In this document: piece after piece, positions 3,001 through 6,000 of the stretch | Position numbering within the stretch: position 1 is the stretch's first letter | How the letters are laid out: each line of letters begins with the position of its first letter | From: a virus | Lineage: Duplodnaviria; Heunggongvirae; Uroviricota; Caudoviricetes | Length of the DNA stretch: 64,000 bases | Reading direction: 5' to 3' (one strand) | IMG/VR virus record: IMGVR_UViG_2718218305_000006 | Position numbers: made by a program

Positions 3001-6000
3001 GCGCATCTCTGCCTGAATTTCGGGCCATTTGGCACCAGGCTTACATTTATGCTTAACCCACCCGATGGCATGCAGCTTAAGCTCCGGATACATAGCGTTA
3101 ACTTCTGGCATTTTCATCAACGCTTCAACGATATGGCCGTCGAATGTTGCCATGTCTTCCTGCAACAATTCCTGTGCGCTAATCACCATATCAACAGTGA
3201 TGTTTTCACATGTGTCGAACTTAACCATGACAGCGTTCTGTACTTCAGGGGCCAGGTTGTCAAAAGTGACGTTCATCGGATCGGATTCAGTCTCGACCGG
3301 GACAAAGGAAGCAGACGCCTCATCCCAGCGGTTTTCCTGCATATATTCAGCATCCCAGGAATCGAGGGCAGGGCGGGGTATACCGGGTTTATCCTCGCAA
3401 ACAAGAAATTTATAAGCGCAGTCCTGAGCAGCCGGATAATGTTCCAGGAATTGCCAGTGAAATTTTGCGCGGGCGCGACGTTCATCACCGGCTTCAATGG
3501 CAGTGGCTACAGCGACGGCACCTTCTTCCTTTATTGCCTGTTCGTCCGGAATGGCGGCGCAAATAAAGACTTTACTCATTTTGTTTTACCTCATTACAGA
3601 TTTAAGGGTGAACAAATCCCTGCCATTGCTGGCATATAAGAATGAAATCGGATGTTTATTACGGAACTGTTTTAAAGACCTGCCGGGATTTCGTTATTAT
3701 CCTGGTGAATAACTTTATCGACCGGGTAACAGTTACCGGGAATTTTCTGTTCGGTTGCTGCAGTCACACACTCCTGCATTGTCCTGTGAACACTGACTGC
3801 AATATCAACTGGCTCTCCGGAAACAAGAAAAACTGTCAGAACAAGTGCAAATGCTGTATTCATTGCCAGCATCCTTTTTGTATCGGACGTAAACGGGCCA
3901 GCATTGAAAGAATGCATATTTTATTTAATAGCTCCCGTTCGTGTTTTCTCTTGTTAATGGCATCTTCAGTAAATACAGGGTTACTGATAGTGACACCAAT
4001 TTCAAAACAACCTTCAGACGTATTAACGTTTGGTAATAACGTTTCCATTATCGCGTCCTCAACAATGAATTTTGTGATGCGGTGCCTGGTGCCTCCAGGT
4101 GACGTTAACCAGTTAACAATTAACGCCGGATACAGAGAATCCCCCCATAACACTGTTTTTGGTTTTAACTGTTCCGCGTGCGCTCAGCCGCATTCACCGC
4201 ATCACAAAATTCACTTTAAAAAGGGCGGCAGAGCAGTCACGGAGTAAAACTGATACCGCCAAACGTCACCAGAAAATTGATAACAGAGGGCGTTGCAGCG
4301 GGGTTGTCACTTAAGCGTATGGTCAACCTGACAACCCGGTGTCCTCAACGGGGGAAGGAATAACCCCTCCATACTTACCGCCGCGCCATTTCGCGGATTG
4401 CCACAACCGGAAGCGCACGGTCGACGAAAATTTAACGACAGGCTATCTATGAACCAGCTACCTCGCCGTGCGCTTTCGCGTTATGGTCTGACTTTTCAGG
4501 GAAATATCCTTTCAGTAAACTGTCAGTGCCGTATGCTCACCCGTGTCCGGCGCACGCACTCCACCTCACCCGTGGAGAACTCCTTAATTACCAACCCTCA
4601 GGAGGGTGAATGTTAAAATCAACTCTTATTGCTAAATGCCTTTATCAAAATCGCATGGTAAGCAGCATTTCAATAGGCGAGTCTGCAGTTAAAAGTATTT
4701 TCGAAGAGTACTTTCCCGGGCATGATTTTAATAAATGGAATACCAAATTACCGCCAGCAGTTTCAACGCGTATTCTGAAAGCAACCGAAAGAGCAAGTAC
4801 AATTCGCGTTAACTATTTCATTAAAGATTTGTGGGATCTTTGATATCCACAGAGCCTAAAGTATGTGCATATGGATGTGCTATTATGCGCCCTCGCAGAT
4901 TTGCATCATTTTCTAAATTCACTGAACGAAACAGGGCATCAACAAGGCTCTGTACAATGCAAAGGCAATCGAAGACTGTCGCCGTTTCTGTTTTGATTGA
5001 TGAAAGAACATGGCCATTCACGCAAACAGAAATTACCCGTTTATTAACATCGCTTTCCTGCTTTTGATTATCAGAACCATATAGCCCAGAAAAAGCATTG
5101 CGCACATTACGAACCATATTATCGATGGTTTCTTTTTCTGCGGTACTAAGGTCAAGAGTAGCCAGTTGTGAACGAACTATATTCGATGCCATTTCCTGTA
5201 ATGGCGTTGGTAAATCTTTAAATTCCATTATTAGCCTCGTTGGTTAGCTATTAACGTGGGTATGTAATCATTCTGGCAATGCTTAATGCCGCTGCTTTTT
5301 CCAGATTGGTGATATCCTGCTCCAGAGCGGACAGATTTTCAGCCTGCTTAGCCCTGGCTTCATTGGCCCATTTCAGGTCCTGCACCGCCTTAATTTTCTG
5401 GTGCATCCACTCATAAAGTTCATCATCGGTATAGTCTGGCGCGATGATGACGGGGTCTCGTTTCTGCATGTCGGCTCCTTGTGGTTAGCGTTGCCTGCTT
5501 TTTAACCACGTCAGGCGAGGTGGTATCCTCTGAGGGGTCTGTTACTCGAGAGGAAATTGGTTATGAATACAATCAAGTTTTCTTGCCCAGAATGTGGTGG
5601 CTAAGTCTTTGACACATCCTTTAAGCCGCAGGGCTCTGACAGTTTCGCGGGAGCCATCTGCAAAAATTGTGGTCACCTTGTAACTGAAGATGAGTCCTCG
5701 CAGTTCGATGACGAAATCGTTGACAATATCTTCGGTGCACTCACCAGAGACTTTCTGAAGTAAAGGCGCATACCGCTTAGTTACCGCTCTGATAACTCTT
5801 ACCTGTCCGGCAATGGCGCTGATATCAATATAAAGCGCCATCGCTGTTTCTTTGCTGATCCCTGGACGCCTTCCATTCTGATGTTTGACTCGCCCACTGA
5901 GAAATCCTCTGCTTCCCCTTAACGCCGGGTAGCGGAACTGTTTGCTGAGAACACCGTGCGGTGTCTTGATGAGTAGAATTTAGAATAGCCTAAGAGTTAT

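Follow-up and report, generated by a model that had tools for sequence, protein, structure and literature searches.

The dosage of the small RNA (sRNA) DicF is linked to the control of ftsZ and, in enterohemorrhagic Escherichia coli (EHEC), to oxygen-dependent virulence regulation. A known locus of this kind is the dicBF operon of the Qin prophage of E. coli K-12. DicF is cut from a polycistronic RNA by RNase III, which yields a 190-nt form, and by RNase E, which yields the 53-nt form (PMC10448788); the 3' region of DicF represses ftsZ, and its 5' region represses xylR and pykA (PMC5069750). The promoter dicBp is repressed by DicA, and an antirepressor, stress, or spontaneous derepression can lift this repression (PMC10448788). 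DicB acts via MinC to stop cell division and to block the ManYZ-dependent entry of phage DNA (PMC6832061), and YdfD binds IspG, resulting in a division-dependent lysis that is counteracted by DicB (PMC8835842). In 2016, multiple dicBF loci, those in CP-933O, M, and P, were reported for the O157:H7 strains Sakai and EDL933, and the CP-933O island was described as two fused prophages (PMC5069750); according to a review, the number of dicF copies in EHEC has expanded to four (PMC7873438). Here, we analyze the dicF-dicB-ydfD modules encoded in the IMG/VR record IMGVR_UViG_2718218305_000006 (Caudoviricetes), of which a stretch of 64,000 nucleotides (the window) was studied. The source is a chromosome of the E. 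coli O157:H7 type, and the window contains two neighboring prophages in the layout of the Sakai prophages Sp12 and Sp11, arranged in tandem in that order, which corresponds to the CP-933O island. As a reference, the Qin region of K-12 MG1655 was aligned with the module of prophage 1 (copy 1) and that of prophage 2 (copy 2).

Our reading, to which we assign a probability of roughly 0.8, is that the window carries the lambdoid early-left ("PL") host-takeover cassette of K-12 Qin twice, with both copies being intact and independently triggered. The observations on which this reading is built were direct and concern sequence identities, membership in families, the architecture of promoters and operators, and conservation. 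The presence of a module in both prophages had been claimed in a sequence-only reading of this DNA, and the limits that it proposed, 3672-4275 and 54470-55073, proved to be exact. The modules and their conserved leaders consist of the following elements.

3672..3863, minus strand: ydfD copy 1, 63 aa (PF07358, 88 bits)
3860..4048, minus strand: dicB copy 1, 62 aa, K-12-type allele (PF05358, 127.4 bits; NF049927, 132.7 bits)
4049..4222, minus strand: structured DicF-dicB spacer (dicB 5' untranslated region [5' UTR]), copy 1, 174 nt (RF02076, 39.7 bits)
4223..4275, minus strand: DicF copy 1, 53 nt (RF00039), identical to K-12 dicF (L003:3883-3935)
4276..4560, minus strand: conserved noncoding leader upstream of DicF copy 1, shared by K-12 and both copies
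54470..54661, minus strand: ydfD copy 2, 63 aa, divergent allele with an A10 tract (PF07358, 54.5 bits)
54658..54846, minus strand: dicB copy 2, 62 aa, second major allele class (PF05358, 125.5 bits; NF049927, 114.2 bits)
54847..55020, minus strand: structured DicF-dicB spacer, copy 2 (RF02076, 39.1 bits), 172 of 174 positions identical to copy 1
55021..55073, minus strand: DicF copy 2, with the substitution A39G (RF00039)
55074..55350, minus strand: conserved leader upstream of DicF copy 2 (93% in blastn, and by alignment)

Both sRNA copies matched the Rfam covariance model of DicF, the comparison on which the sequence-only reading had staked its claim. A scan of the whole window with RF00039 returned 4274..4223 on the minus strand (76.7 bits, E = 3.6e-15) and 55072..55021 on the minus strand (75.0 bits, E = 1e-14), with both matches covering positions 1-52 of the 52 model positions, and the gathering score of the family is 48 bits. 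These E values, together with the full-length coverage, rule out chance matches; the idea that the sequences are something other than DicF has practically no probability left, and copy 1 matches K-12 dicF at every base. Copy 2 differs from K-12 DicF by the single base change that had been noticed earlier, A39G, which converts the U27:A39 pair in the inner stem of the terminator hairpin into a U:G pair and leaves the fold intact. Both copies thus show the same fold, with a 3' terminator hairpin followed by a U tract, and a terminator-like site was called for copy 2. The duplex predicted by RNAduplex between DicF and the region from -60 to +30 of K-12 ftsZ has an energy of -38.5 kcal/mol and is the same for A39 and G39, with position 39 being unpaired in an internal loop. 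An effect of A39G on ftsZ targeting was considered and dropped, as the predicted duplex was unchanged. The G39 variant is also found in the Sakai prophage Sp11 and in strain Balcarce_24.2.

The leader folds into a duplex of approximately 22 bp, the 3' arm of which is situated some 137 nt upstream of DicF; in copy 2, both arms are kept around a different intervening loop. This long duplex is the presumed RNase III site, and its position matches the start expected for the 190-nt RNase III product (PMC10448788). Just upstream of the leader, within the early-left operon, each prophage carries a small open reading frame (ORF) on the opposite strand, at 4610-4843 (+) and 55398-55619 (+). These ORFs encode 77 and 73 aa, belong to PHROGs 10348 and 4274 of unknown function, and occupy the position that sieB has in Rac.

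The control elements of the two modules, along with the genes located between each promoter and leader, are as follows.

4821..5841, minus strand: upstream operon ORFs of copy 1, namely, orf99 (5542-5841), ydfC (5251-5469), and orf135 (4821-5228)
5977..6030, minus strand: dicBp-type (PL-like) promoter and operators of prophage 1, TTGACC-18-TAAATT
6105..6512, minus strand: DicA repressor of prophage 1 (NF007257, 241.6 bits), 63% identical to K-12 DicA
6589..6816, plus strand: DicC (Cro-like) of prophage 1 (NF007282, 167.6 bits, cut-off 130)
55620..56422, minus strand: upstream operon ORFs of copy 2, namely, a ydfA-like DUF1391 gene (56270-56422) and orf212 (55620-56258)
56497..56527, minus strand: PL-like promoter of prophage 2, TTGACA-17-AACAAT, with the 19-bp palindromic operator TGTTCTCTTAAGATGAACA
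56591..56980, minus strand: CI-type repressor of prophage 2, 129 aa (PF07022, 47.8 bits)

The upstream ORFs of copy 1 are based on the ORF list, the RefSeq annotation of an identical region, and PHROG matches of unknown function, and those of copy 2 on the RefSeq annotation of a near-identical region, translations, and PHROGs. The promoter of prophage 1 and its transcribed leader align with K-12 dicBp. Repeats of the type TTAGG...CCTAA are present at this promoter and, as inverted-repeat partners, in the dicA-dicC intergenic region (6514-6552). The repressor encoded there is DicA-like, as had been proposed, and exceeds the NF007257 cut-off of 101 bits.

The repressor of prophage 2 had been labeled RacR-like, which did not hold up: the alignment with RacR is confined to 28 residues of the helix-turn-helix, with 12 identities (E = 3e-4), and DicA is weakly closer. 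Its score against the DicA model (NF007257) amounts to 38.7 bits, below the cut-off, and the identity to DicA is 26% over 110 aa. The proteins encoded next to it are only 30 to 31% identical to YdaS and YdaT of Rac, and NCBIfam models at their cut-offs retrieved no match for the YdaT-like proteins or the Cro-like protein of this prophage. Judged by its sequence, the repressor is a separate CI-type protein that is distantly related to DicA and is neither RacR nor DicA proper. The repressor gene is followed by an intrinsic terminator and then by the PL-like promoter. This promoter and a PR-like promoter (57025-57055) are 31-nt mirror images with 84% identity that flank the repressor gene; a TGTTC-N9-GAACA palindrome lies over each of them, and a third half-site was detected at 56997-57007. 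These sequence features give the uncharacterized repressor a clean OL/OR layout of the lambda type. In both prophages, the operator repeats of the PL-like promoter thus recur in the immunity region of the same prophage. The operators of one prophage are unrelated to those of the other, indicating that the modules are under separate, heteroimmune control, and the earlier claim of different repressors was in this respect correct.

The processing, targets, and phenotypes proposed below are by analogy with the K-12 literature. A repressor would hold each PL-type promoter off, namely, DicA in prophage 1 and a CI-type protein of unrelated specificity in prophage 2. Derepression of the prophage would then give rise to a polycistronic transcript, from the conserved leader of which RNase III and RNase E would release the 53-nt DicF, with its 3' end provided by its own intrinsic terminator. 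Read-through transcripts would include, in this order, the structured spacer, dicB, a translationally coupled ydfD, and the exonuclease, xis, and int genes. DicF, together with Hfq, would pair with the ribosome-binding site of ftsZ and with other mRNAs, whereas the invariant N-terminal segment of DicB is expected to bind MinC, so that both Z-ring assembly and the ManYZ-dependent entry of phage DNA would be blocked; the connection of DicB with phage resistance made in the sequence-only reading agrees with published data (PMC6832061). YdfD would be a lysis protein that targets IspG. Since the pairing sequences of DicF are the same and the operators are unrelated, the prophages should act as two sources of one RNA regulator that are triggered independently of each other, and each source would be coupled to one of two common DicB/YdfD allele pairs.

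Both DicB proteins match the family profiles over their full 62 residues and above the cut-offs (27 for PF05358 and 100 for NF049927), and both YdfD proteins exceed the PF07358 cut-off of 25; no NCBIfam model matches YdfD. In both copies, the start of ydfD and the stop of dicB overlap in an ATGA. DicB1, which had been called canonical, is indeed of the K-12 type with 89% identity, but the term applies only approximately, as there are 7 substitutions, 4 of which are within the last 8 residues. For DicB2, the identity to K-12 DicB is 63%; its N terminus is shared with DicB1, and its C-terminal part is divergent, as stated previously: residues 1-15 are the same in DicB1 and DicB2, E16D is the only change through residue 19, and the sequences diverge from residue 16-20 on. 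The N-terminal segment 2-14, including L5, is intact in both proteins, with K2E as the sole difference from K-12. Mutagenesis of K-12 DicB has shown that its activity requires approximately 14 N-terminal residues and L5, which also have a part in the binding of MinC, that residue 2 can be substituted, that the last 8 residues are dispensable, and that truncation of 12 to 20 C-terminal residues weakens the protein (PMC4967827). Considering these data and the invariant N terminus, the known important determinants of DicB are present in both copies. YdfD1 and YdfD2 share 94% and 44% identity, respectively, with K-12 YdfD, and C32 and C45 are invariant in both copies.

A search for DicB in a large protein collection returned only 142 clusters, all of them enterobacterial and nearly all named DicB. 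Their alignment revealed two allele classes, of which the K-12-like class ends in ...ERELLNKICIVSMLARLR... and the class of DicB2 in ...EPYLLNDNSILSRIALLELG...; across both classes, little or no variation is seen in residues 1-19 and in the block FTEDAINxRKxE. The type-2 dicB-ydfD block, with annotated dicB, was found in 850 of 5,426 complete E. coli genomes, including that of Sakai (Sp11), and hence represents a common allele rather than an oddity of this window. These allele data bear on the idea that copy 2 has diverged in function, in that its N terminus still docks to MinC, while the C-terminal helix and the YdfD allele have another partner or potency, for example, another membrane transporter, phage-entry route, or lysis target. 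The divergence is abrupt and extends as a single recombination block from dicB codon 16-20 to the end of ydfD, there are two discrete allele classes with few intermediates, YdfD2 has retained less than half of the K-12 YdfD residues, and the block is maintained in the above 850 genomes. On the other hand, the profile scores of the two DicB alleles are almost equal, I46, S48, and A51 as well as the helix pattern persist in the C-terminal part, and the part that can be removed from K-12 DicB includes its last 8 residues. On balance, a functional divergence of copy 2 is improbable.

The surroundings of the modules were compared by blastn of one early region against the other, which showed a mosaic with only three shared segments. 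The first corresponds to int, xis, and the 3' part of the exonuclease gene (88.6%). The second is a 48-bp block just before the exonuclease gene with 100% identity:

3588..3635 and 54384-54431: junction block of 48 bp, located between the ydfD and exonuclease genes (identity of 100%)

The third is a 615-bp core from the DicF leader to approximately dicB codon 35, with 93% identity overall (3944-4556 versus 54742-55350). A core of some 600 bp is conserved at 93 to 99%, whereas its flanks are mosaic. The junction block is nearly identical in K-12 too, with diverged flanks on both sides; it contains a small hairpin (TGCCAGCAATGGCA) and the ribosome-binding site of the exonuclease gene, and it may mark the boundary of the module and be used in recombination. 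The exonuclease genes downstream of ydfD are both large and intact, at 1108-3579 (-) and 51933-54377 (-), and encode proteins of 823 and 814 aa, respectively. Both proteins have a C-terminal Rv2179c-like 3'-5' exoribonuclease domain, and only that of prophage 2 has the N-terminal domain of exonuclease VIII; K-12 ydfE is the remnant of a large exonuclease gene.

Sequence similar to the module is present in 4,766 of the 5,426 complete E. coli genomes. Among sequenced phages, mEp460 and Tritos, for example, carry the module, the latter with an annotated DicF. Many O157:H7 chromosomes are 100% identical to the window in the copy 1 region. At least 80% of a 3.3-kb copy 2 segment was found in only 9 of the 5,426 genomes, and one Argentinian O157:H7 strain matches the copy 2 region except for a 1-nt indel.

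The two prophages differ in the state of their integration genes. At the start of the window (1-950), positions 1-88 correspond to the first 29 codons of rspA, which continue without a gap into an internal part of an integrase gene that is truncated and frameshifted; as compared to K-12, the remainder of rspA, rspB, ynfP, and the C terminus of the integrase are missing. Truncated and fused to the rspA fragment, the integrase of prophage 1 cannot excise this prophage, which is therefore locked at the Qin site. Prophage 2, on the other hand, has intact int and xis genes in addition to the gene for the 814-aa exonuclease.

The truncated integrase is one reason to ask whether the modules are passive remnants in decaying prophages, with no role for the host and with a duplication that results only from the tandem integration of two related phages. 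In the same direction point the int and exonuclease genes of Sakai Sp11, which are pseudogenes, and the A tract of ydfD2, which is frameshifted in one strain. This tract (54509-54518, T10 on the plus strand) is A10 in the window, corresponding to one extra Lys in frame, A7 and in frame in Sakai Sp11, and A9 in Balcarce_24.2, where the gene is annotated as frameshifted; the variation could reflect slippage-prone on/off switching or an assembly error. However, each copy has all three genes in intact form, along with an intact promoter, operators, and processing leader, and the core is 93 to 99% conserved within mosaic flanks. Furthermore, K-12 DicF is expressed in stationary phase (PMC10448788), and DicB protects against phage (PMC6832061). 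We consider passive remnants to be less probable still than a functional divergence of copy 2.

Several of these observations weigh against the reading of two intact, independently triggered takeover cassettes. With prophage 1 locked in place, its module may act only as a set of host genes. A total of 23 of the 62 positions of DicB2 differ from the DicB that was studied experimentally, and as C-terminal truncations weaken that protein, an equal potency is not assured. An AlphaFold2 model of DicB2, based on a family alignment of 30 sequences, was of low confidence (mean pLDDT of 63.9 and pTM of 0.28) and thus provides no structural support beyond a three-helix secondary-structure pattern, and a sequence search of the Protein Data Bank with DicB2 returned no match. 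The genome in which the ydfD2 tract is frameshifted is the closest one in the database. Finally, the case for this strain is made from sequence.

The analysis also provided a lead concerning the 174-nt spacer between DicF and dicB. With relaxed thresholds, both copies aligned with the whole RF02076 (STnc100) model at scores below its gathering score of 47; covariation supports the structure that they share with this family, so that the spacer counts as a relative but, by the Rfam criterion, not as a member. On its own, the spacer of copy 1 has a folding energy of -72.8 kcal/mol (z = -6.0), and its outer stem of 26 to 28 bp reaches the Shine-Dalgarno region of dicB. The consensus structure obtained from an alignment of 8 sequences has 41 pairs, with 95% of the cells paired. 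Compensatory changes were observed at 18 of the spacer pairs, as compared to 6.2 ± 1.8 in shuffles and 0 to 5 in slid controls, although the consensus structure was derived from the same small alignment that was used for the covariation analysis. The helices supported in this manner are common to Qin-type, Rac-type, Stx-phage, P7, and Klebsiella-phage copies.

In K-12 Rac, a spacer of about 175 nt with approximately 85% identity lies between KilS and kilR (L004 7223-7409 [-]), and KilS itself (L004 7411-7466 [-]) matches the DicF model over its full length with 39.1 bits, below the gathering score given above. Related spacer copies precede Kil in the Stx phage 75/02 of Shigella and terB in P7. 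The match of KilS to the DicF model and the presence of the same spacer make KilS-kilR and DicF-dicB look like a single RNA cassette that precedes two division inhibitors unrelated to each other. No mention of DicF is made in the KilS paper, and the Pas/STnc100 preprint mentions neither DicF nor dicB. These findings suggest that the spacer may be a cis-regulatory device shared by the division-inhibitor genes of phages, upstream of which it lies.

A broader proposal, which we regard as speculative though somewhat more probable than the alternatives discussed above, is that a DicF-family sRNA with its terminator and an STnc100-like leader closed by a stem of 26 to 28 bp form a portable cassette that is placed before unrelated toxic host-takeover genes, with the stem serving as a cis gate and KilS being a re-seeded DicF paralogue; as a separate element of this proposal, the type-2 DicB and YdfD would differ in partner specificity. 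If so, the gene that lambdoid phages put behind the cassette would be dicB in the Qin type and kilR in the Rac type and in Stx phages, with related copies ahead of terB and of esterase genes. Either as a substrate of RNase III or by occluding the ribosome-binding site, the long stem would restrict synthesis of the toxin to read-through transcripts that have been processed.

Additional RNA features were noted in the window and in Rac. The 5' part of KilS (L004 7432-7543 [-]) contains AUUGCUGUGUGUAGUC, which is identical to a stretch of the RprA consensus, and there is a weak RprA match (28.1 bits, E = 0.38). A genuine STnc100 is located in the late region of prophage 1 at 16510-16718 (+), with 175 bits. 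It forms part of a segment (16168-16779) that comprises two tRNA genes, STnc100, and an AgvB/AsxR-type sRNA (16720-16779, 56.6 bits), which abuts the 3' end of STnc100 on the opposite strand; a 636-aa esterase-like ORF follows. Each prophage has one match to a hok/sok-type antitoxin RNA (11392-11541 and 63378-63553), and an ALIL frameshift pseudoknot at 21484-21600 marks an insertion sequence of the IS3 family within prophage 1. Weak Rfam matches in the region to tsr32, STnc50, mir-43_2, IS009, and Plastid-ycf2 were treated as noise.

The arrangement of two modules under different repressors had been called notable, which overstates the case: dicBF loci in several copies were already described for O157:H7, and the DicB2 allele is common. 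In view of the report from 2016, the finding was already known, and it amounts to a correct annotation of known biology. What is added here is that two copies with effectively identical DicF pairing sequences are wired to unrelated operators, that the "divergent" DicB is a second common allele of its family, and, as a modest side lead, that dicF-dicB and kilS-kilR have a spacer in common that is related to STnc100.

Among the known systems, the K-12 Qin dicBF operon (dicA / dicC / ydfABC-dicF-dicB-ydfD-ydfE) has the gene order and orientation of the window modules. Prophage 1 is at the same chromosomal site, next to rspA, and its DicF is identical to that of Qin; the leader, the spacer, the dicBp promoter, and the 48-bp junction are homologous, and homologues of DicA and DicC are present in the window. 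The differences concern the genes between promoter and leader, which are orf99-ydfC-orf135 or ydfA-like-orf212 here and ydfA-ydfB-ydfC in Qin, and the downstream exonuclease gene, which is intact here (823 and 814 aa) and the pseudogene ydfE in Qin. In addition, the DicA of prophage 1 is only 63% identical and its operators differ, and copy 2 has another repressor and another dicB/ydfD allele. Sakai Sp11 has the type-2 dicB-ydfD block and the A39G substitution of DicF, as does copy 2, whereas it differs from prophage 2 in its pseudogenized int and exonuclease genes, which are intact here, in its immunity region (the 113-aa ECs_2209 in Sakai versus the 129-aa repressor), and in the ydfD2 A tract (A7 versus A10).

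In Rac, kilS-kilR occupies the same early-left operon position as DicF-dicB, and KilS shares with DicF the hairpin GGCGG..ATCAGTTTT..CCGCCCTTTTT. However, the seed and loop sequences of KilS differ from those of DicF, the division inhibitor KilR is unrelated to DicB, and no ydfD follows kilR. The STnc100/PasD family (RF02076), finally, has helices in common with the DicF-dicB spacer. Unlike STnc100, the spacer has no terminator and runs straight into the ribosome-binding site of dicB, which identifies it as a 5' UTR and not as a free-standing sRNA gene.

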